Assembly (NCBI GenBank): GCA_029889005.1
Contig: GCA_029889005.1_4349.1
Direction: 5' to 3' (one strand)
Length of the DNA: 44,477 nucleotides
DNA from: a phage
Part shown: piece by piece, positions 7,702 through 43,172 of the stretch
Layout: the number at the start of each line of letters is the position of its first letter
Numbering within the stretch: the stretch's first letter is position 1
Made by a program: the position numbers and the translations under genes
The notes under the pieces: model-generated
Told to the model about the DNA's origin: nothing
The model's input: the letters and a program-made list of their open reading frames with translations, nothing else
Database searches by the model: none

Positions 7702-7809
7702 TCTTTAATCCTTTGGTTAAGAGGTTGTTGGTTAAAGAGAAATGCACCAGGCGGTAACCAACCGCTTTTCGTGCGCGACACTAGGTGCAAAATTATTCTA
7801 ACACACTAC

Positions 7810-7838
7810 TTGCACACCCCAATATAATAGGGTACTAT
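7810..7838 (+). promoter_or_regulatory. Sigma70-like promoter, class A (TTGCAC-N17-TACTAT) with AATAG-N4-CTATT palindrome
   Basis: Hexamers with 17 bp spacer; ~35 bp motif recurs at 17957, 28540(-), 29928(-); downstream ATG 7879. Confidence 0.5.
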
Positions 7839-7878
7839 TCACTTACACCAACGTTATTAACTTAAATAAGGAATTAAA

Positions 7879-10440: not shown

Positions 10441-10470
10441 AAAAAGGCCCCGAAAGGGGCCTTAGTTTTA
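10441..10470. terminator. Bidirectional intrinsic terminator
   Basis: AGGCCCC-GAAA-GGGGCCT hairpin flanked by A-run and T-run between convergent gene ends. Confidence 0.7.
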
Positions 10471-15261: not shown

Positions 15262-15291
15262 AAATGAAAAGAGGGGCCGAAGTCCCCCTCG
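15262..15291 (-). terminator. Intrinsic terminator after major capsid gene
   Basis: GAGGGG ... CCCCTC hairpin followed on minus strand by TTTTCATTT, ~15 nt after capsid stop. Confidence 0.5.
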
Positions 15292-17141: not shown

Positions 17142-17405
17142 CTATTCCAGAATATTCCTCACGTAATCCTGCAACATGAACACTTTCAGTCTCAGTTGCC
17201 GTACACATTCTGCGTTCTGAACGTCGATAGCCAAATCCTCGTCGGCGTCGCTACTTGGCGCTGCCAGTTTGCACGGAGGCTGCATCATCGTCGTATCCGG
17301 TAATGGAATTAGCGTTTGCGACGGCGCGGGACTTGAGCAGGACGCGAGCATCGTCGAAAGTGCACACGCTGCGACCCGGCGTTTTAATGTATTTAACGAC
17401 TTCAC
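17142..17405 (-). CDS. Outer-membrane spanin (Rz1-like lipoprotein)
   Basis: GTG with AGGTGA RBS; signal peptide ending in lipobox LASC, Pro-rich mature part; starts inside the Rz-like gene in another frame and extends past its stop. Confidence 0.6.
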   Translation of the reverse strand: MKSLNTLKRRVAACALSTMLASCSSPAPSQTLIPLPDTTMMQPPCKLAAPSSDADEDLAIDVQNAECVRQLRLKVFMLQDYVRNILE

Positions 17406-17637
17406 GGGTAATCACCTCTGATTTCGTCTTGCCTTCGTTGTCGGCGGCGGCGGCCTTTGATTCGTCCTGCTGCTGCCGTTGTGTTTTCTTCGCTAACTCA
17501 GCCTGCGCTTTCTGCTGTTGCTGCGAAACGAGATTCGCCCGGCCTTCGTGCCAGCCGCTGCGGTACTGATAAATGCCGTGTGTGTAAGCCAGGATGATGA
17601 AACATGCTCCTGCTACGACGGTTGCTTTAAGATTCAT
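17251..17637 (-). CDS. Inner-membrane spanin (Rz-like)
   Basis: Strong AAGGAG RBS; N-terminal transmembrane segment then Gln/Lys/Ala-rich coiled-coil-like region; contains embedded Rz1-like ORF. Confidence 0.6.
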   Translation of the reverse strand: MNLKATVVAGACFIILAYTHGIYQYRSGWHEGRANLVSQQQQKAQAELAKKTQRQQQDESKAAAADNEGKTKSEVITREVVKYIKTPGRSVCTFDDARVLLKSRAVANANSITGYDDDAASVQTGSAK

Positions 17638-17650
17638 GTTTCTCCTTTCT

Positions 17651-17681
17651 CGATAAGTAAAGCCCCGCCTTAAAGCGGGGC
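17651..17681 (-). terminator. Hairpin terminator/attenuator upstream of spanin genes
   Basis: GCCCCGC-CTTAAA-GCGGGGC hairpin followed on minus strand by TTTACTTAT, then RBS of Rz-like gene. Confidence 0.45.
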
Positions 17682-17758
17682 GCTAGTCCTTATCATTTAA
17701 ACATAGAAACGGCGTAATCTAAGTAAACCTGTTACTTTTTACACAAGCAATAGAGTAT

Positions 17759-17890
17759 GGCCCTTCCGAACGCGTCAGCGTAACTACACTCAGGACTTAC
17801 GTCCCGCTCCGTTACCTGCCCGCGCCGCGGTCGCTTGTTCATACTTCACAAGCTCAGGTGGAGCTTAGCACATTTTCAGTGAAAAGTCAA
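17759..17890. repeat. Conserved ~130 bp non-coding element, copy 1
   Basis: Aligns base-for-base over long stretches with 30133..30265 (GGCCCTTCCGAA ... AACTACACTCA ... CCGCGGTCGCTTG ... TCACAAGCTCAG ... AGCTTAGCA ... AAAAGTCAA), with compensatory hairpin changes. Confidence 0.7.
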
Positions 17891-17956
17891 CTATTCGAAT
17901 AGTTTATTCCAATATTTACAATTTAGTGGAATAAATGGAATAGTCTGTATCTGTGC

Positions 17957-17985
17957 TTGCGCGCACCAATATAATAGGGTACTAT
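17957..17985 (+). promoter_or_regulatory. Sigma70-like promoter, class A (TTGCGC-N17-TACTAT)
   Basis: Same ~35 bp motif as 7810..7838; downstream ATG 18014; opposite strand also reads TTGATA-N17-TATATT (possible divergent promoter). Confidence 0.5.
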
Positions 17986-18013
17986 TCAGATATCAAAACG
18001 AGAGGAGAGTGAT

Positions 18014-18226: not shown

Positions 18227-18228
18227 AA

Positions 18229-18256
18229 CTAAGGCCCCATAATGGGGCCTTTTATC
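18229..18256 (+). terminator. Intrinsic terminator
   Basis: AAGGCCCC-ATAAT-GGGGCCTT hairpin then TTTATCATT. Confidence 0.7.
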
Positions 18257-20555: not shown

Positions 20556-20557
20556 AA

Positions 20558-20588
20558 CTAAGGCCCCTAGCGGGGCCTTTCTATTTAC
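20558..20588. terminator. Bidirectional intrinsic terminator
   Basis: AAGGCCCC-TAGC-GGGGCCTT hairpin then TCTATTT; between convergent gene ends. Confidence 0.7.
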
Positions 20589-26160: not shown

Positions 26161-26193
26161 AAAATAAAACCCGGATTCGCGGCCCGGGTTTAT
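26161..26193. terminator. Intrinsic terminator after endolysin gene
   Basis: AACCCGG-N9-CCGGGTT hairpin with T-rich runs on both strands; just downstream of endolysin stop. Confidence 0.65.
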
Positions 26194-28509: not shown

Positions 28510-28539
28510 CTTCTGTCTCTCCTCTCGTCTGTGTAAATG

Positions 28540-28568
28540 AATAGTAGCCTATTCTATCTTAGTGTGCA
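28540..28568 (-). promoter_or_regulatory. Sigma70-like promoter, class A (TTGCAC-N17-TACTAT)
   Basis: Same motif as 7810..7838 in minus orientation, ~30 nt upstream of 28509 start. Confidence 0.5.
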
Positions 28569-28727
28569 AGTAAATTTTATTGGTGTTTGTATTGTTGCAT
28601 TTCCTGCAATAGTCGCTTCGATTGTTGCGTTTGATGAAAGTGTCGCCTTTTGACGACACTAAGTTAAAGTTGTACGCTGCTGTGTAGCAGCGTAAGTCAC
28701 TCAGTAAAATCCCAAACTATTGACCTG

Positions 28728-29689: not shown

Positions 29690-29893
29690 TTATTTAAAGT
29701 AGATAGCAAATTTCTTGTAACCCGCTGGCTCGTTACGAAGTCCTTTACCGTTAGCGAAACGTTGTACGTTAACAAAATCATTTTCATCCATCCCGTCGGT
29801 GTCGAACGTAAAGAAGTTGCGCTTGTTCCCGATAATTACGCGCTCAGAGATATCGATGCCGTAAACTTCTTTGATTGCGGTCGCTTTGTTCAT
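29690..29893 (-). CDS. Hypothetical early protein
   Basis: 67 aa, first gene after class A promoter at 29928..29956. Confidence 0.4.
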   Translation of the reverse strand: MNKATAIKEVYGIDISERVIIGNKRNFFTFDTDGMDENDFVNVQRFANGKGLRNEPAGYKKFAIYFK

Positions 29894-29927
29894 TTCTAAA
29901 TTCCTTATGTCTCGTTCCGATAAGTGA

Positions 29928-29956
29928 ATAGTATCCTATTATGTTGGGGTGTGCAA
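29928..29956 (-). promoter_or_regulatory. Sigma70-like promoter, class A (TTGCAC-N17-TACTAT)
   Basis: Motif CTTGCACACCCCAACATAATAGGATACTATTCAC in minus orientation ~35 nt upstream of 29893 start. Confidence 0.5.
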
Positions 29957-30132
29957 GATAATAGTTACGTTGCCGTTGTGATTCTTTTGTTTCTTAAAAG
30001 AGTACGCAACGCAGTGGGTGGGCTAACGCCCACCCCAGCGGAGTGAAGTACTCTCTACCTTGCTTACGGCAACTATAGAAACTTTTAATTATCAGTGACT
30101 TGAGTATTTAGGCGGGATTAACAATAGACTTT

Positions 30133-30265
30133 GGCCCTTCCGAAAGCGCCAGCGGAACTACACTCAAGTGCCTAATGGCACGCGTTGCGTTCCCTGCCGC
30201 TCCGCGGTCGCTTGCGATATCTCACAAGCTCAGTGAAGCTTAGCATATTTTTAAGTAAAAGTCAA
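30133..30265. repeat. Conserved ~130 bp non-coding element, copy 2
   Basis: Homologous to 17759..17890; contains GTGCC-TAAT-GGCAC and AAGCT-CAGTG-AAGCTT hairpins. Confidence 0.7.
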
Positions 30266-30312
30266 TACCAGTAGCATCTTTTGTATTTTAGTAACTTTGC
30301 GTGGTGTTTTGG

Positions 30313-30341
30313 TTGCTTTTACATTCACGCTATCCTATACT
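30313..30341 (+). promoter_or_regulatory. Sigma70-like promoter (TTGCTT-N17-TATACT)
   Basis: Hexamers with 17 bp spacer ~30 nt upstream of 30373 ATG. Confidence 0.45.
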
Positions 30342-30372
30342 CGTTTTCACCAAACAAACAGGAGATATAAAA

Positions 30373-30555
30373 ATGCAGCATTACATGACACAGAATGAAG
30401 TGGCTGAACGTATCGGGGTGACACGTCAAACCATTAATAACTGGTTGCGCAGCGGTAAATTCCCTGATTGCTGTATTAAGGTTATGGGTCGCCGTTTACC
30501 AGGAACATTTGACCGTAATAAAGTTGAAGCGTGGATTAAGGAGAACGTGAAATGA
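30373..30555 (+). CDS. Small HTH DNA-binding protein (AlpA/Xis-like)
   Basis: AGGAGA RBS; TQNEVAERIGVTRQTINNWLRSGKFP helix-turn-helix; start at internal ATG of track ORF 30301..30555. Confidence 0.5.
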   Translation: MQHYMTQNEVAERIGVTRQTINNWLRSGKFPDCCIKVMGRRLPGTFDRNKVEAWIKENVK

Positions 30556-30832: not shown

Positions 30833-30961
30833 ATGACAAAGTTAATAGTTCCACAGCTACGCCGCCAGAAACACGGCGCTGACTTCTTCGCACCGGTAAA
30901 GATGAACCGCGCAATGCGCCGTATGCAGGAAGCCTTAGAACGTGCGGAGAAAAAGAAATGA
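30833..30961 (+). CDS. Small basic protein (42 aa), hypothetical
   Basis: ATG with AAGGA upstream; stop overlaps primase start (ATGA); below track cutoff. Confidence 0.35.
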   Translation: MTKLIVPQLRRQKHGADFFAPVKMNRAMRRMQEALERAEKKK

Positions 30962-33210
30962 ATATTGTTTTTGCAACGCTGCGCAACACATTCGATAAAA
31001 ACCCTGTAGCGCGTGAGATGCCTCTCGAGCAGTTTGTGGAGTATGTCTGCGATACATCGAAGCGTTTATCCGTGGATCCGTCGTGGTCTAAGGAAGAGTA
31101 CGACGCTGCCAAGATTAAGCAGAAAGCTATTGCGCCTGTTGGGGGTCGCCGTAAAAACGCTATCCTGGAAGACAGTGTGGTTAAGTTCGATTTTGACCAT
31201 CTCAACCGTACTCAGTACCGCGACCTTACCCGCAAATTCAAGAACGCACCGTTCTTCAATATTCTGCATACAACGGCATCGCATCAGCATGTGTGTAAAA
31301 ACGGTGATTACGCCTTCCGCGTTCTCGTACCGGCTCGCACGCCGTTTAACTCTAACGACGCGTGGATGGTCCAACGGGCTATTTGTGCAGAGTTAGAAAT
31401 AGATGAAGCCTTGCGTGACCACTGCACGGAAGACGGCAACCGCCTTATCTATCTGCCACATAGAGAGTCAAAGATAACGGTTACAGAAGGGCGTGTTATC
31501 CGTGCCGAGCGGTACATCAAGAAAGCCGAAGAGATGGGGTTGAGTAAACGTGAAGTTAAGACACTTGCCGCCGATGAGTATGGGCTTAATGCTGATATAG
31601 CGCATTTCTGCGAAGCCGAGCTTGGCCTTGACGCTTTATCTTCCGGGCGCGGGTACGAAGTCCCATGCCCTAACGAACATCTGCATACAGGCAAAGGCTC
31701 CACAAGCATCATGCTTGATGGTAAAGAAGTGCGCTTTGTGTGCCAGCATACAAACAACGGCGCTTGCACCGAGCTTAACCGCCGACAGCATTTGGCCCTG
31801 CGTATGTGCGGCCTGCCAGACGAGCTTAACGTAGACAAGCAACCTATCAGTATTAACAGCATTCGTGCGGCTCTGCCTGATTTACCGGATGAAGAGATTG
31901 AAGAACTGCACCGCACAGAGAACGAGGAGCCTGTAACTTGCACGCTGGAAGACCTTGAAGAAGAGGACGAGTTACCAGAACCGGTAAAGGCTGATTTCGT
32001 CGTTGAGGGGTACATGCCGTCTGATTGTATCTGGGATATTGTCGGGGAATCCGGCACGTACAAATCATTCTATACGCTGGGGATGATGTACCTGAGCGCC
32101 GCCGGGTACCGGTTTGCGGGGGCTGACACCCAACGTTGCCACCATTTCTATATTGACGGCGAGGGTGGTGCAGCTACACGAACACGTATTGATGCACTCG
32201 CGGCTAAATATGGCGAGGAAGGTAAAGATTATGTACATGTCATCGATATGGGCGAAATACTCGCTACGCATGGTGATAAAAAAATTCCAGCTCTAATCCG
32301 CAGGATGCGCGAAACCGCAGGGGATGAACCTATTGGCATGGTTGCCTTCGACACCCTTAACCAGACGCTGGCCCTGACGATTGATAAGTTCGACGAGAAC
32401 AGTTCATCAACGGCAATCGGTATGGGTAAAGTTATCGCCATCCTGAAAGAAGTGCGCGATGCAACTAAAGCCGCTGTCGGTGTCGTTCACCATACTCCGA
32501 AGGGCGGAAAGAAAGCCCGCGGCAGTGGAGCATTGTATGCGGGTGTCGACGTGGAACTGACAATCGAACGCGCTACCGACCGTCAGATAAACGTATACCA
32601 CTCTAAATTTAAGCACGGTCCGCAACAGAAGACGGTTGGCATGGTACTGGAGTCTGTACAGTTCCGTGAAGCACCGCCGCCGAAAGAGTACCGCGCGGTT
32701 GAGTTCCTCGGTAGCACAGAGGAATACGGCACAATAGTAAACCTCGACCTGCCTGAGCCGCACAAGGCGCTTGTATTGATGCCGTGGGGCTTCGAGCCAT
32801 TCAAGACCGACGAGGAGAAAGAGAGGGAAGAAGGGTTAACTAACGAAGGTAAACAAAATGTACGTAAAACCATAGAGAACGCCGTCAACAGTTCCGAGGC
32901 CACGATACTCGCGGCGTTTGAACTGGCGGAGGGGACCTACAACGGCAACGAGGGCATCACGGTATCCGCAGCGAATAAGCTCGCGCAGTCTGACCCCAAC
33001 GCAAAGGCGTTTAACTCCAAAGAAGCCATAGAACGCGGGAAGATTAAGAAAATGGTTGAGGCTGGGTATCTTGTTCCGGGTACTGACGAAAACAATCAGA
33101 TAATCCCAGGCCGTTACAGACTGAACACCATGATAACAGATAACAAGATTCCGAAGACAATATACGAGCCGAATGAAATGCTGACAGTGACCGAGGAGGA
33201 TTTGGAATGA
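30958..33210 (+). CDS. Primase-polymerase (AEP-like) / RecA-like helicase fusion
   Basis: N-terminal VKFDFDH and ASHQH motifs, central Cys/His cluster (CPNEHLH ... CQHTNNGAC), C-terminal Walker A GESGTYKS and RecA/DnaB-like ATPase region. Confidence 0.75.
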   Translation: MNIVFATLRNTFDKNPVAREMPLEQFVEYVCDTSKRLSVDPSWSKEEYDAAKIKQKAIAPVGGRRKNAILEDSVVKFDFDHLNRTQYRDLTRKFKNAPFFNILHTTASHQHVCKNGDYAFRVLVPARTPFNSNDAWMVQRAICAELEIDEALRDHCTEDGNRLIYLPHRESKITVTEGRVIRAERYIKKAEEMGLSKREVKTLAADEYGLNADIAHFCEAELGLDALSSGRGYEVPCPNEHLHTGKGSTSIMLDGKEVRFVCQHTNNGACTELNRRQHLALRMCGLPDELNVDKQPISINSIRAALPDLPDEEIEELHRTENEEPVTCTLEDLEEEDELPEPVKADFVVEGYMPSDCIWDIVGESGTYKSFYTLGMMYLSAAGYRFAGADTQRCHHFYIDGEGGAATRTRIDALAAKYGEEGKDYVHVIDMGEILATHGDKKIPALIRRMRETAGDEPIGMVAFDTLNQTLALTIDKFDENSSSTAIGMGKVIAILKEVRDATKAAVGVVHHTPKGGKKARGSGALYAGVDVELTIERATDRQINVYHSKFKHGPQQKTVGMVLESVQFREAPPPKEYRAVEFLGSTEEYGTIVNLDLPEPHKALVLMPWGFEPFKTDEEKEREEGLTNEGKQNVRKTIENAVNSSEATILAAFELAEGTYNGNEGITVSAANKLAQSDPNAKAFNSKEAIERGKIKKMVEAGYLVPGTDENNQIIPGRYRLNTMITDNKIPKTIYEPNEMLTVTEEDLE

Positions 33211-33521: not shown

Positions 33522-33547
33522 AAAGAAAGGGGCTTTAAGCCCCTTCA
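33521..33547. terminator. Hairpin terminator between convergent genes
   Basis: AGGGGC-TTTAA-GCCCCT hairpin with A/T-rich flank. Confidence 0.5.
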
Positions 33548-33750
33548 CCTAACGCCAGCCACTTGGCGTCTACTTCCAGAACTTCCGCCAGTTTGAACAG
33601 CGTTGCCGGGCGGACGTCCTGAGTTACTCCAAGTGCCAGTTGGTTAATCGCGCCCTGGGAAACGCCGGTCAGGGCCGCCAAACGGCGCTGGGAGATGCCG
33701 AGTTCTTTACGGCGTTGTTCTACACGGATACCTAGTTCAGATGGTTGCAT
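33535..33750 (-). CDS. XRE-family HTH transcriptional regulator (Cro/CI-like)
   Basis: LGISQRRLAALTGVSQGAINQLALG helix-turn-helix; AAGGAG RBS; divergent from the downstream plus-strand genes. Confidence 0.7.
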   Translation of the reverse strand: MQPSELGIRVEQRRKELGISQRRLAALTGVSQGAINQLALGVTQDVRPATLFKLAEVLEVDAKWLALGEGA

Positions 33751-33814
33751 GTCAATTACTCCTTAGTCAGTTGATATGTGAATAGTACCATATTAATTAT
33801 TTTAGAAAAGCCCA

Positions 33815-33843
33815 TTGACACGTGAATAGTTCGCTATTATAGT
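33815..33843 (+). promoter_or_regulatory. Sigma70-like promoter, class B (TTGACA-N17-TATAGT) with GAATAG-N4-CTAT palindrome in spacer
   Basis: Consensus -35, 17 bp spacer containing TGAATAGTTCGCTAT; second palindrome copy ~33777..33801. Confidence 0.55.
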
Positions 33844-33871
33844 TAACCCATACCAAACGAGAGGGGCAGAT

Positions 33872-36169: not shown

Positions 36170-36369
36170 TTCAAGTAAATGAAATGCCGACTGATAAAGA
36201 TTTTTTGATGGTATGGCGCTGGGATGGGTATCTACACTCGGAATCGTTCACGTTCTTGAACGGTACCATGATGCGATACGACCATGTGGAGGATGAATTC
36301 GAACCCGTTGATATGAATGATTTCGAGATCATAATCCCTATTGCAAAATTTTATTTGACACATGAATAG
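36136..36369 (+). CDS. Hypothetical protein
   Basis: Likely start ATG ~36166 with AGAGGAGG RBS overlapping nuclease stop. Confidence 0.4.
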   Translation: MESGYRGGFRMIQVNEMPTDKDFLMVWRWDGYLHSESFTFLNGTMMRYDHVEDEFEPVDMNDFEIIIPIAKFYLTHE

Positions 36370-36383
36370 TTAGCTATTATAGT
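36355..36383 (+). promoter_or_regulatory. Sigma70-like promoter, class B (TTGACA-N17-TATAGT)
   Basis: Spacer CATGAATAGTTAGCTAT contains the GAATAG-N4-CTAT palindrome; ~70 nt upstream of 36452 ATG. Confidence 0.55.
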
Positions 36384-36451
36384 TCTAATCACTGGCCGGG
36401 CAGCTTCCCGGAGTAAACTTTGAAATATAAACTGAAAAGCGAGAAATCACG

Positions 36452-37078: not shown

Positions 37079-37095
37079 TATCTGAATCAATTTAA

Positions 37096-37122
37096 CTAAG
37101 GCCCTTCATTGGGCCTTTTTAC
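37096..37122 (+). terminator. Intrinsic terminator
   Basis: AAGGCCC-TTCATT-GGGCCTT hairpin followed by TTT. Confidence 0.6.
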
Positions 37123-37137
37123 TAGGGGTCAAAAATA

Positions 37138-40100
37138 ATGAGTTACCTGTTCTTAGACTTTGAAACATTCTCAGAAGCCGATTTGAAGAAAGTCGGTTCT
37201 TACGCTTACGCCGAACACCCGTCAACCGAAGTGCTTATCTGTACATATGCTTTTGACGACGAACCTGTGCGGGTATGGGATTGCACCGACGGCAGCGACA
37301 TGCCGGGGGATTTACACCGCGCACTGCGCCGCCTTGTTAAGCCCAACAGCCGCATCAAGATGGTGTGGCACAACGGTGGACTTTTCGATCGCCTAATCAT
37401 GAAACACTGCTGGGACTTTGATATTCCGGTAAGTAACACCATTGATACTATGATTTGGGCGTTCCGTCACGCGCTGCCGGGTTCTCTTGATGCGCTGTGC
37501 GAAGTGCTGGGCGTGTCTGCAGACAACGCGAAAGATAAACGCGGAAAGGCTCTGATTAAGCGTTTCTCTAAACCGACGCCGAAGAACTACAAAATCCGCC
37601 GCTACACCGCAGAAACTCACCCTGACGAGTGGGCGATGTTCATCAGGTACGCCGTGAGCGACATCACTGCGATGCGTGAAGTCTTCCATAAGCTGCCGCG
37701 TTGGGGTAACTCCGAGTTCGAAGACCGTGTACTGGAACTTGACCAGTTAATCAACGACCGCGGATTTAAGGTTGACGTCGCACTGGCGGAAGCCGCGATT
37801 GAAGCCGTAGAGAAGCACAAGGCACAGTTACAGGAAGAAGCTCAACGTAAATACGGCGGCTCGCTTACCGGTAAAGACTTCCTTCCGATTCTGCGTGAAC
37901 TTGCGCCCGCGCACCGCATACACAATGCACAGAAGTCGACGCTTAACGACCTGTTGGCAGATGATGATTTACCGGACGACGCCCGGATGATTATCGAAAT
38001 GCGCCTCGGGGCCGCGTCAACAGCGTCCACGAAATATAACCCGCTGCTGTTAGGCCGCTCGTCGGACGACCGACGCCGCGGTTGTATCCAGTACGGCGGA
38101 GCCAAGCGTACATTACGATTTGCCGGTAAAGGCTTTCAGCCGCAGAACCTCGCGCGGGGGTACTATCACGATGATGAACTGGATAAAGGTATTTCAGCGT
38201 TACTTAAGGGCCGCGCGCATCGCCGTTTCGATGTCGCTAAGCTAACGGCATCGACGGTGCGTAGCTGCATTATCCCGGAAGCCGGAAAAAAGTTTGTCGT
38301 CGCCGATTACTCTAACGTTGAAGGTCGGGGGCTTGCGTGGCTGGCAGGCGAAGAAACCGCGCTCGATACATTCCGTGCGGGATTGGATATTTACTGCGTA
38401 ACAGCAGGTAAGATGTTCGGCATGGACCCTGATTACATCAAGAAAGAACGTAAAGACTTACGCCAGATTGGTAAAGCCTGTCTTCACCGCCATACCCAAG
38501 TTTTGACCGATGGCGGATTTAAGGATATTATGGCGGTCGCATCAACAGATAAAGTATGGAGTGGTGAAAAATGGGTGAATACAAAAGGCGCGCACCTTAT
38601 GGGGTGGAAACCGGTGATAAATGTGGACGGAGTGCTAATGACCGAAGACCACAAAATATTGACGCATTCCTGGAAGCAGGCAAAGCAACTCGTTTCAAAC
38701 AAATATATGATGGACCGCGCCCTGGAGATAGGTATGGACGCCTGGTTATCCTGCGCGAGTTACCAAAACGACAAGGTCATAGACAACTACTTGCTCAATG
38801 TGATTGCGGAGAGATTCCGGGGCGCGTCGGGTACGACAATGTTAGAAGGGGTAAAACCACTCAATGCAACCGCTGCGCACTTGAAGCAACAAAAAAATAT
38901 CGTAAACAGTATTTCTGCTACGAAGACGCAATGCCGGACGACGGGCACAGAGCGCGATTGCTCAACCGGTTATCTGCGGCAATATCGCGAACAACAAAAC
39001 CTAACGACAAAGGCTATAAAAACTATGGTGCCAGAGGGATTACCGTATGCGAAAAGTGGAAGGCCGATAGAAGGGCGTTTCTTCTCTATGTTCAAACTCT
39101 GGAAGGCTGGGATGACCCAAAACTCGAAATGGACAGAATCGACACAGACGGTAACTACGAACCTGGAAACATTCGGTTTGTCAGCCGTTCTGAAAACTGC
39201 CGTAACAGACGGCAAATACCTGAGCTTCAACGAAAGTATGATGCAGCCGTTGCCCGCATTGCTGAGCTTGAACGGGAAATTAACCTACTGCGAGCCGGTT
39301 TACGACCTGATTGATGTGGAAGACGGAAACCGTTTTCTTATAGCCTCCGACTCTGGCTTTCTTGTGGCGCATAACTGCGAACTTGGACTCGGCTACGCCG
39401 GGGGTGTCGGTGCTTTCGTTCAGTTCGCCAAGAACCTCGGCCTTGACCTTGTAGATATGGCAAAAACAATGGATGGGACTTTCCCTGACCACATCTGGGC
39501 CGCTACCGCGCGCGGGTACGAGTGGGCGCGTATTCAGGAAGCCAAGCGACCACCGCGTCCGGGTGAAAAGGATGACCGACCATCATATATTCTTGATAAG
39601 AAAGTCTGGCGTACATGCGACGCAATTAAGCGTATGTGGCGGGAGTCCCACCCGGAAACAGTAGCTTTCTGGCGTGATATTGAAGACGCAGCTATGGCAG
39701 CAATCCGTAATCCGGGGAAAGAGTTCACCGCTGGCCCTCGCGGGGTTAAGTTTTCTCGCAACGTAGAAACAGACAACAACGGCAACAAAGTCGCTGGTTG
39801 GTGGTTGCGCATGACGTTGCCGTCAGGTCGCGTTATGTCATACCCGGGCGTCGGGTTGAGCGTGTCAAAAGAGACAGACGAAGACGGAAAAGTTTCTACT
39901 AACGTGCGCATCAAGTATCAGGGTGAAAATCAGTTAACCAGGCAGTGGGGCTTCCAGTACACCTACTCCGGTAAACTGGTGGAAAACTGCACTCAGGCAC
40001 TGTGCCGTGACTTGCTGGCTAATGCGCTACTTAACGTTGAAGCAAACGGCTACCCGATTGTACTTCACGTACACGATGAGATTATCTGCGAGACACCAGA

Positions 40101-40215
40101 TTTACCAGAATACAATGTTGCAGAGCTTGAGCGATTGATGTGCGAATTACCAGAATGGGCGGAGGGGTTCCCTCTTGTAGCGGAAGGTCAGGAGTTAAAA
40201 CGCTATGCTAAGTAA
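37138..40215 (+). CDS. Family A (Pol I-like) DNA polymerase with 3'-5' exonuclease domain, interrupted by an intein
   Basis: Exo motif FLDFETFSE; motif A VVADYSNVEGRGLAW; motif B split as RQIGKA | intein | CELGLGYAGG; motif C VLHVHDEIICE. Confidence 0.9.
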   Translation: MSYLFLDFETFSEADLKKVGSYAYAEHPSTEVLICTYAFDDEPVRVWDCTDGSDMPGDLHRALRRLVKPNSRIKMVWHNGGLFDRLIMKHCWDFDIPVSNTIDTMIWAFRHALPGSLDALCEVLGVSADNAKDKRGKALIKRFSKPTPKNYKIRRYTAETHPDEWAMFIRYAVSDITAMREVFHKLPRWGNSEFEDRVLELDQLINDRGFKVDVALAEAAIEAVEKHKAQLQEEAQRKYGGSLTGKDFLPILRELAPAHRIHNAQKSTLNDLLADDDLPDDARMIIEMRLGAASTASTKYNPLLLGRSSDDRRRGCIQYGGAKRTLRFAGKGFQPQNLARGYYHDDELDKGISALLKGRAHRRFDVAKLTASTVRSCIIPEAGKKFVVADYSNVEGRGLAWLAGEETALDTFRAGLDIYCVTAGKMFGMDPDYIKKERKDLRQIGKACLHRHTQVLTDGGFKDIMAVASTDKVWSGEKWVNTKGAHLMGWKPVINVDGVLMTEDHKILTHSWKQAKQLVSNKYMMDRALEIGMDAWLSCASYQNDKVIDNYLLNVIAERFRGASGTTMLEGVKPLNATAAHLKQQKNIVNSISATKTQCRTTGTERDCSTGYLRQYREQQNLTTKAIKTMVPEGLPYAKSGRPIEGRFFSMFKLWKAGMTQNSKWTESTQTVTTNLETFGLSAVLKTAVTDGKYLSFNESMMQPLPALLSLNGKLTYCEPVYDLIDVEDGNRFLIASDSGFLVAHNCELGLGYAGGVGAFVQFAKNLGLDLVDMAKTMDGTFPDHIWAATARGYEWARIQEAKRPPRPGEKDDRPSYILDKKVWRTCDAIKRMWRESHPETVAFWRDIEDAAMAAIRNPGKEFTAGPRGVKFSRNVETDNNGNKVAGWWLRMTLPSGRVMSYPGVGLSVSKETDEDGKVSTNVRIKYQGENQLTRQWGFQYTYSGKLVENCTQALCRDLLANALLNVEANGYPIVLHVHDEIICETPDLPEYNVAELERLMCELPEWAEGFPLVAEGQELKRYAK
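38479..39375 (+). mobile_element. Intein (299 aa) inserted in polymerase motif B
   Basis: N-terminal CLHRHTQVLTDGG (block A) and GVLMTEDHKILT (block B); C-terminal VYDLIDVEDGNRFLIASDSGFLVAHN then +1 Cys. Confidence 0.8.
38571..39314 (+). CDS. HNH homing endonuclease encoded inside the intein in a different reading frame
   Basis: 247 aa ORF out of frame with the polymerase; ATG directly follows an in-frame TGA with GGTGA 4 nt upstream; motifs RYGRLVILREL ... CDCG ... CNRC, YKNYGARGITVCEKW, LEMDRIDTDGNYEPGNIRFVSRSEN. Confidence 0.75.
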   Translation: MGEYKRRAPYGVETGDKCGRSANDRRPQNIDAFLEAGKATRFKQIYDGPRPGDRYGRLVILRELPKRQGHRQLLAQCDCGEIPGRVGYDNVRRGKTTQCNRCALEATKKYRKQYFCYEDAMPDDGHRARLLNRLSAAISRTTKPNDKGYKNYGARGITVCEKWKADRRAFLLYVQTLEGWDDPKLEMDRIDTDGNYEPGNIRFVSRSENCRNRRQIPELQRKYDAAVARIAELEREINLLRAGLRPD

Positions 40216-40567: not shown

Positions 40568-40852
40568 ATGACCCCGGAAGGCAAGATTCAGAAATACGCA
40601 AAAGAGCAATTCGAGGCCATTGGCGGCCTCGTTCGTAAACTTTCGTACGAGGGGCGCTCCGGCGCCCCTGACCTGCTGGTAATTCTCCCCGGCGGCATCG
40701 TCTGGTTCGTCGAGGTTAAGAAAGACGAAAACACGAAGCCAGACCCGCACCAGTTACGTGAGCATGAGCGGATGCGTAAACGCGGTGCAAATGTTTTTGT
40801 CGTTGGTTCGTTTAAACAGGTTGACGACCTAATAGCAAACTATTATAGTTAG
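40568..40852 (+). CDS. VRR-NUC domain nuclease
   Basis: GAPDLLVIL ... WFVEVK PD-(D/E)XK-type motif in a 94 aa protein. Confidence 0.7.
   Translation: MTPEGKIQKYAKEQFEAIGGLVRKLSYEGRSGAPDLLVILPGGIVWFVEVKKDENTKPDPHQLREHERMRKRGANVFVVGSFKQVDDLIANYYS
40821..40849 (+). promoter_or_regulatory. Sigma70-like promoter, class B (TTGACG-N17-TATAGT)
   Basis: Lies in 3' end of VRR-NUC gene; predicted leader ACACCAAC ... TAAGGAATT ... ATG matches leader of 7879 gene. Confidence 0.5.
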
Positions 40853-43142: not shown

Positions 43143-43172
43143 GAAAAGGCCCCGTTTGGGGCCTTAGTTTAT
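43143..43172. terminator. Bidirectional intrinsic terminator
   Basis: AAGGCCCC-GTTT-GGGGCCTT hairpin with T-runs on both strands between convergent gene ends. Confidence 0.7.

Follow-up and report, generated by a model that had tools for sequence, protein, structure and literature searches.

A repeated promoter and structured leader RNA at the head of two long operons in a Kagunavirus-like phage: a candidate put-like leader

Background

Direct reprogramming of RNA polymerase is, to our knowledge, on record for very few RNAs, and the put RNA of phage HK022 is almost a one-family curiosity. The put RNA suppresses termination and pausing in cis with RNA polymerase alone, and mutations in the zinc-binding domain of the beta' subunit abolish this activity (PMC9378689). 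Here we analyzed a repeated non-coding element of a 44,477-nucleotide phage contig (GCA_029889005.1_4349.1 of NCBI GenBank assembly GCA_029889005.1; the whole stretch is referred to as "the window"), one copy of which (copy 1) lies ahead of the capsid operon and the other (copy 2) in a gene-free region at about 30 kb. The repeat is a minus-strand promoter followed by a structured leader RNA of ~95 nucleotides (nt) at the start of a long operon.

The window represents a Kagunavirus-like virulent siphophage (Guernseyvirinae). A segment of 501 base pairs (bp) around copy 2 was 95-96% identical to E. coli Kagunavirus phages (fPoEco01, fFiEco02 and others) and gave more distant matches to numerous Guernseyvirinae of Salmonella and E. 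coli. The window is collinear with the reverse orientation of an annotated relative, fPoEco01, and the resulting gene map was confirmed by PHROGs searches of the open reading frames (ORFs) of the window.

Results and discussion

Two copies of a promoter-leader module

The two copies (30122-30265 and 17748-17890) were 78.9% identical over 147 alignment columns (E 1.1e-26 within the window), and covariance models R1 and R2 found no third copy in the window. Thus the second copy reported in a preliminary description, which had been made from the letters of the window alone, exists, although its range of 30073-30265 was too wide: positions 30122-30265 are repeated, while the remaining 30073-30121 (50 nt) has only a CTATAGAAAC/CATAGAAAC motif in common with copy 1. 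The gene-free setting described for copy 2 was likewise borne out, as a gap of 479 bp (29894-30372) separates a minus-strand gene (29893..29690) from a plus-strand gene (30373..30555). Both copies carry the same module on the minus strand, consisting of a promoter, two hairpins (P1 and P2) and a single-stranded tail. Their parts and the downstream signals are, in the direction of transcription:

Copy 2
30237..30265, minus: promoter, with -35 TTGACT (30265..30260), a 17-nt spacer ending in TGc (extended -10) and -10 TAAGCT (30242..30237)
30227..30232, minus: -10-like hexamer TGAGCT, spanning the predicted transcription start site at about 30230-30231 (placed from the spacing)
30210..30229, minus: P1, the 5'-terminal hairpin GCUUGUGA-GAUA-UCGCAAGC
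two nucleotides, minus: linker between P1 and P2
30140..30207, minus: P2, a 68-nt irregular hairpin with a CCG/CGG base, bulged C, tandem G.U pairs, middle helix, internal loop and variable apical hairpin
30120..30139, minus: conserved unpaired tail AAGGGCC-AAAGU-CUAUUGUU
30057..30119, minus: poorly conserved linker, which includes GUUUCUAUAG (30082..30073)
29997..30056, minus: long composite hairpin, terminator-like, with base AGAGUAC/GUACUCU, top GGGUGGGC-GUUA-GCCCACCC and a UUUU end
29921..29957, minus: operator-type ("class A") promoter TTGCAC-N17-TACTAT for the downstream operon, belonging to repeat families

Copy 1
17862..17890, minus: promoter, with -35 TTGACT (17890..17885), TGc and -10 TAAGCT (17867..17862)
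17833..17853, minus: P1 hairpin GCUUGU-GAAGUAUGA-ACAAGC, with the predicted start site at about 17854-17855
17766..17830, minus: P2 hairpin, 65 nt
17746..17765, minus: conserved tail AAGGGCC-AUACU-CUAUUGCU
17651..17695, minus: leader hairpin with core GCCCCGC-UUUAAG-GCGGGGC (17681..17662) followed by UUUACUUAUC, and lower stem GAUAAG/CUUAUC

The hairpin GGGTGGGC-TAAC-GCCCACCC and the repeated class A promoter motif that had been reported downstream of copy 2 were both found, the former at 30016-30035 as the top of the larger hairpin 30056..29997 and the latter at 29921-29957. On the other hand, the statement that copy 1 shows the same order did not hold: immediately after the copy 1 hairpin (17681..17662) come the ribosome-binding site and start codon (ATG, 17637) of the spanin gene, and the sole operator-type promoter motif near copy 1 (17956-17996) lies on the opposite side of the element.

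Promoter signals at the head of the module

The motif TTGACT-N14-TGn-TAnGCT matched the window twice, at the two copies (chance expectation 0.07). Both hexamers and the TG were fixed in a set of 43 distinct upstream variants while the spacer and the n drifted, which is the signature of a real extended -10 sigma70 promoter, TTGACT-N14-TGn-TA(A/C)GCT. Moreover a second, -10-like hexamer was kept in all types of the element, 3-5 nt downstream of the -10, and the two hexamers co-varied between types (TAAGCT/TGAGCT versus TACGCT/TACGCT). By analogy, the repeated hexamer recalls the -10-like pause elements of lambdoid PR' and of putL (PMC9378689).

Upstream of the copy 1 promoter (17891-17945) are TATTCC/GGAATA repeats and a perfect palindrome, CTATTCGAATAG, which abuts the -35. 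The Jerseyvirus type has equivalent GGAATA/TATTC repeats, and copy 2 has none. These repeats probably bind a regulator of the capsid-operon promoter.

A wider set of promoters was also seen in the window. The class A promoters and a second promoter family have in common a near-palindromic core, TGAATAGTnnnCTATTATA, whose left or right half supplies the -10 in either orientation. The core looks like an operator common to eight promoters, and a gene for a DicA-like helix-turn-helix repressor (33535-33750, minus) sits between two of its sites. The core sites are:

7809-7845, plus: core site
17956-17996, both strands: core site
28526-28572, minus: core site
29921-29957, minus: core site
33771-33800, plus: core site
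33815-33844, plus: core site
36355-36384, plus: core site
40821-40850, plus: core site

The leader as a structured RNA of the minus strand

Homologues were collected by a DNA pattern scan of IMG/VR (41 loci), via the neighbouring capsid gene (78 loci), by a metagenome scan (40 loci) and from GenBank phages. They fell into five sequence types: the copies of the window are types 1 and 2, variants make up types 3 and 5, and the Jerseyvirus form, type 4, has diverged strongly. Covariance model R1, built from types 1, 2, 3 and 5, found type 4 at the syntenic position (E about 1e-9 to 1e-10).

Several lines of evidence from the substitution pattern argue that the element is a structured RNA (formally, a single-stranded nucleic acid) of the minus strand: i) In an R1-fitted alignment of 31 distinct sequences, 94.4% of the pair cells were standard, versus 27-44% when the partners were slid by 1-3 columns; changes on both sides were present in 14 of 30 pairs, and none of 500 shuffles matched the observed values. 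ii) As this alignment had been fitted to the model, the test was repeated on 13 sequences by plain MAFFT and RNAalifold; P1 was recovered again, as were the basal, middle and apical parts of P2, and half of the 18 predicted pairs (9) were compensated. iii) G.U cells numbered 85 on the minus (sense) strand versus 2 on the plus strand, and the paired fraction was 94.4% for sense versus 84.9% for antisense. iv) P1 was wholly rewritten in type 4 (UACGCU-UUC-AGCGUA versus GCUUGU...ACAAGC), yet a hairpin stood in the same position. Folding energies were lower on the minus strand for the consensus of the copies (-31.5 versus -20.0 kcal/mol on the plus strand) as well as for copy 2 (-49.3, z -3.0, versus -38.7 kcal/mol) and copy 1 (-42.0 versus -28.5 kcal/mol) folded singly. 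An RNA of the plus strand was ruled out by the G.U asymmetry and these energies.

While the helices and apical loops (GUAA, AUUA or UCACAA, depending on type) changed, certain unpaired positions did not. The internal loop of P2 holds an invariant GUA (GAGUGUAG), and in the tail of all five types GGAAGG(G)CC and CUAUUG were near-invariant around a variable 5-nt spacer (GGAAGGGCC-N5-CUAUUG). P1 starts 0-2 nt after the predicted start site in every type. Such a conserved promoter, a fold that begins at the 5' end of the RNA and invariant unpaired nucleotides together suggest that the leader is recognised by some macromolecule.

Downstream of the tail, a linker that drifts in sequence leads over 60-90 nt to a GC-rich hairpin at both copies. 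These hairpins are long composite stems of 17-22 bp in which the U-rich 3' flank pairs with the 5' flank (-33.5 kcal/mol, z -4.83 at copy 2; -22.5 kcal/mol, z -3.9 at copy 1). The copy 1 hairpin was flagged by a terminator scan as terminator-like, and its stem co-varied in Jerseyvirus-type copies (GCCCGGC/GCCGGGC and GCCCGAC/GUCGGGC).

This anatomy could also be that of a 5' leader that controls the fate of the messenger RNA (mRNA), in which P1 would protect against RppH and RNase E, and P2 and the long hairpins would be processing or stability elements (e.g., RNase III sites as in T7 early and late mRNAs), yielding long-lived late messages. The position of P1 at the very 5' end, the length of the downstream stems and the irregular duplex of about 23 bp that P2 forms all suit such a role, as does the presence in the copy 1 operon of the capsid gene, which must be the most abundantly expressed. 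However, stability hairpins rarely hold invariant unpaired nucleotides, and here GUA, the tandem G.U pairs and the tail were kept while the helices were rewritten. We therefore regard control of mRNA fate as an unlikely, if serious, explanation.

A family absent from Rfam

The RNA family is absent from Rfam and was not found in the searchable literature. The whole window gave no Rfam match at gathering thresholds, permissive scans of copy 2, copy 1 and a Jerseyvirus-type copy with all 4227 families stayed at chance level (E >= 0.16, far below threshold), and a search for tRNA or tmRNA found none. As for transcript maps of Guernseyvirinae, Kagunavirus or Jerseyvirus, the searchable literature held one gene-level RNA sequencing study, which has no intergenic analysis.

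Coding potential at the element was limited to short, non-conserved ORFs, whose frames and starts differed between the two copies. A leader peptide starting from the UUG in CUAUUG, with a Shine-Dalgarno-like AAGGG upstream, was considered and rejected: the mini-ORFs span 3-18 codons and are unconserved, and the UUG is lost in phage K1G (CUAUCG). Many GenBank phage records (hits H46, H48, H50, H55, H66, H101 and others) annotate a "hypothetical protein" over the RNA, which are probably false gene calls.

Resemblances to known RNA signals were also unproductive. None of those to boxA, ops/JUMPStart or CsrA GGA motifs, sought by eye, was consistent across the five types; boxA itself (CGCUCUUA-like) is absent, the nearest string being CUCUAUUG in the tail. 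Homology to HK022 put was rejected as well: putL was located at about 28310 (minus) in the HK022 genome (L042) and has no alignable similarity to the leader RNA.

Distribution of the two copies among Guernseyvirinae

Types 1, 2, 3 and 5 occurred at 224 places in 181 GenBank phage records, about a quarter of which had two copies, and type 4 occurred in a further 268 Jerseyvirus records with one copy each. The total of about 450 records were all Guernseyvirinae. Copy 1, ahead of the spanin-scaffold-capsid-tail operon, was universal, and copy 2 was present in about a quarter of the Kagunavirus-type records. The 40 metagenome matches all belonged to one phage family of about 44 kb. The element was absent from 5,426 complete E. 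coli genomes; R1 and R2 found no more distant homologues at capsid-related loci down to 39% capsid-protein identity; and a loose pattern scan of IMG/VR returned chance matches only. Among GTDB species genomes the single occurrence was a 738-bp contig (NZ_JACVEL010000048.1; L240) of the Taishania pollutisoli (Bacteroidota) assembly. Besides the RNA element, this contig holds the last part of a decoration-protein gene and the first part of a spanin gene, and it is almost certainly assembly contamination by a Jerseyvirus fragment.

In phage K1G (L281, 36640-36900), P1 and P2 are lost from the copy 2 site, while a degenerate relic of the tail (AAGAAAGCCCCCGTCTATT), the linker, the composite hairpin and the downstream promoter are kept. 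The site carries another cassette instead, with a TTGACA-N17-TAAAAT promoter and a GCCCCGC hairpin in inverted orientation; thus the leader module is exchangeable.

The distribution bears on the proposal of the preliminary description that the element may have origin function, that is, that it is a replication origin or gives rise to an origin-activating or primer transcript. Copy 2 does adjoin the replication module, its surroundings are the genome's most AT-rich part, and the cumulative GC skew reaches its minimum there (about 30-31 kb); the G-rich tail could, speculatively, favour an R-loop. However, the skew minimum coincides with the switch in gene orientation and is thus non-discriminating, and iterons are absent at copy 2. 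Moreover copy 2 is missing in most relatives, the universal copy stands ahead of the capsid operon far from the replication genes, and the loss of P1 and P2 specifically at the K1G site makes an essential origin role unlikely. The constraint is also RNA-like, strand-specific and compensatory rather than at the level of duplex DNA: it fits a single-stranded minus-strand transcript, with an extended -10 promoter just upstream. An origin is therefore very improbable. What stood of the preliminary description is that the element is conserved, functional, non-coding, present twice and tied to transcription signals.

Operons downstream of the leaders

The genes and signals around the two copies are as follows:

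17637 to 10468, minus: copy 1 operon (Rz-like spanin, scaffold, major capsid protein ... tail proteins)
17251..17637, minus: Rz-like spanin gene, first of the copy 1 operon, with its ATG at 17637
15290..15271, minus: internal terminator of the copy 1 operon, after the capsid gene
29893 to 20585, minus: copy 2 operon (~20 small ORFs, holins, endolysin, terminase small and large subunits, portal)
29690..29893, minus: first gene of the copy 2 operon
26191..26167, minus: internal terminator of the copy 2 operon
from 30373 rightward, plus: replication side (helix-turn-helix protein, helicase-primase, nuclease, DNA polymerase, helicase)
about 30313-30341, plus: promoter ahead of the replication genes, which differs from the promoter at 29921-29957
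30958-33210, plus: helicase-primase
37138-40215, plus: DNA polymerase

The two operons measure about 7.2 kb and 9.3 kb and both contain internal terminators. The promoter at 29921-29957 had been described, wrongly, as that of the replication module; it faces leftward into the small ORFs, holin, endolysin, terminase and portal genes, and the replication genes lie to the right on the plus strand.

Five near-identical bidirectional terminators (AAAAGGCCCCnnnnGGGGCCTTAGTTT; 10442-10468, 18227-18254, 20556-20584, 37094-37121 and 43144-43170) mark the ends of transcription units. Elsewhere in the map, the DNA polymerase ORF has 1025 amino acids, compared with 726 in the K1G polymerase; an endonuclease-like insert of ~370 amino acids (phrog_93, residues 465-837; about 38530-39648) splits the family A polymerase domain after residue 447, and it may be an intein or a homing-endonuclease insertion.

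Copy 1 is isolated upstream by the bidirectional terminator at 18227-18254 and a convergent gene, and no promoter was found between its leader hairpin and the spanin gene. Thus transcription of the capsid operon must cross the leader and a GC-rich hairpin with a U-rich tail. This argues against a self-contained small RNA gene, about 200-230 nt long and extending from the promoter to the hairpin, whose product would have its targets in trans, in host or phage, or would titrate a protein, with read-through into the operon being incidental. Such a gene would account for the element having its own conserved promoter, a downstream hairpin with a U-rich tail and, at copy 2, an independent promoter after the hairpin, and the conserved unpaired tail could provide a seed or bind a protein. 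However, the U-tract of the Jerseyvirus type is poor, no typical Hfq-type U-run follows the hairpin, and complements of the tail or of the internal loop were not enriched within the phage genome. A small RNA gene is distinctly unlikely.

The distance of 60-90 nt to the hairpins bears likewise on a sensor leader, i.e., a riboswitch or protein-binding attenuator whose ligand-bound state would alter termination, Rho access or translation locally and non-processively. Known aptamer designs include hairpins built around a conserved internal loop, and the element does belong to a 5' leader, with a hairpin and a ribosome-binding site downstream of it. Yet no expression platform overlaps the conserved RNA, and Rfam gave no match. 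Riboswitch-style pairing of the conserved RNA with the arms of the downstream hairpin was sought and rejected, as it was limited to partial matches of 4-5 bp that were unconserved between the copies. Because the hairpins lie 60-90 nt off, beyond a drifting linker and with no conserved competing pairing, action at a distance fits and a classical attenuator or riboswitch is disfavoured; we consider a sensor leader improbable.

A possible terminator-resistance leader

The reading that we favour, tentatively and by analogy, is that the module encodes a cis-acting leader RNA giving processive antitermination or anti-pausing, put-like in architecture and function without belonging to the put family. 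It is favoured because of the internal terminators of the operons, the two-copy arrangement resembling put and nut, the layout resembling that of the lambda late operon, and the lack of any N- or Q-like protein among about 40 ORFs searched with PHROGs and the Pfam antitermination families (many small ORFs having no known function); nor is a Q gene annotated in fPoEco01 or K1G. In such a mechanism a strong extended -10 sigma70 promoter would fire into the ~95-nt leader (P1, P2 and the single-stranded tail) at the head of the operon, and the nascent leader would act in cis on the RNA polymerase that made it, either alone, like the HK022 put RNA, or with a phage or host factor, like nut with N. 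The elongation complex would become resistant to pausing and termination, pass the leader hairpin, at which termination is predicted, as well as the internal terminators, and thus transcribe the whole operon, from spanin through scaffold and capsid to tail at copy 1 and from the small ORFs through lysis and terminase to portal at copy 2.

Several points weigh against terminator resistance: i) The searchable literature holds no transcript data for these phages, so that the start site, RNA ends and read-through are inferred. ii) The RNA is not homologous to put, as R1 and R2, run against the complete HK022 genome with E up to 10 and 1, found no match. iii) The leader hairpin in the 268 Jerseyvirus records has a poor U-tract (UUAGCGUAU) and the copy 2 hairpin was left unflagged by a simple terminator scan; thus the proximal hairpins may be weak terminators that need no antiterminator. 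iv) K1G keeps the copy 2 hairpin and the downstream promoter without P1 and P2, so that hairpin and RNA are no obligate pair. v) The second promoter downstream of the copy 2 hairpin means that this operon can be transcribed without the leader. vi) Two stem-loops at a 5' end are a generic design, which a stability element would be just as likely to have.

A broader claim, which we hold to be doubtful, would be that the leader adds a third class, of independent evolutionary origin, to HK022 put and Bacillus EAR as RNAs that make host RNA polymerase terminator-resistant unaided, and that virulent Guernseyvirinae would use it to drive their late operons (capsid, tail, lysis and packaging) without an N- or Q-type protein. 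If terminator resistance is confirmed, a second, unrelated phage example would show the essential features of polymerase-reprogramming RNAs and would offer a compact ~95-nt part for terminator-proof transcription units. Whatever its function, the RNA motif is previously undescribed and shows strong covariation, and it heads the capsid operon, at the 5' end, in about 450 sequenced phages of Salmonella and E. coli; its recognition corrects the annotation of several records in which "hypothetical protein" ORFs had been placed over it. Many of the carrier phages are candidates for phage therapy. The hypothesis is open to direct test, since the carriers also include members of the BASEL collection that grow on derivatives of E. 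coli K-12.

Comparison with known systems

Among described systems, HK022 put shares several features with the module. Like putL and putR, the element has two paralogues in the genome, and each of them directly follows a sigma70 promoter and heads a long operon with terminators (PMC9378689). Two adjacent irregular stem-loops with strong covariation begin at or near +1, which agrees in part with put. As in put, compensatory changes distinguish the copies, the early transcribed region includes a -10-like hexamer, and no gene for a dedicated antiterminator protein is recognisable. On the other hand, the two RNAs have no sequence or model similarity. The put RNA has ~70 nt with two similar stems, whereas the leader here has ~95 nt with a short P1 and a P2 of 65-68 nt followed by a conserved 3' single-stranded tail; moreover, the phages carrying put are lambdoid and temperate while this host phage is virulent, and the activity here is predicted.

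The lambda late region (PR'-qut-6S RNA-tR') resembles the locus in layout only, with a constitutive-looking promoter, a -10-like element at the start site and a leader of ~170-230 nt that ends in a hairpin and is followed by lysis and morphogenesis genes. In the lambdoid late leader, however, it is the Q protein bound to DNA that acts and the leader fold is unconserved, whereas here conservation is in the RNA fold and no homologue of Q was found. Lambda nutL and nutR with N provide a parallel in that the signal resides in the RNA and each of two operons has a copy in its leader; in contrast to nut, the present RNA has no boxA, its apical loop is unconserved (versus boxB), and no N-like protein was detected.

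The EAR element (eps-associated RNA) of Bacillales is likewise a structured cis RNA proposed to act in processive antitermination over a long operon, but it is located within an exopolysaccharide operon of bacteria and its fold differs, and no credible Rfam match was obtained here. Finally, the RNase III hairpins of the T7 group are comparable in that they, too, are repeated, irregular, 50-70 nt long and interrupted by internal loops, and occur in leaders and between genes of polycistronic phage mRNAs; unlike the present module they are scattered among many genes and lack both an attached promoter and a conserved single-stranded tail, and cleavage of the RNA described here is hypothetical.

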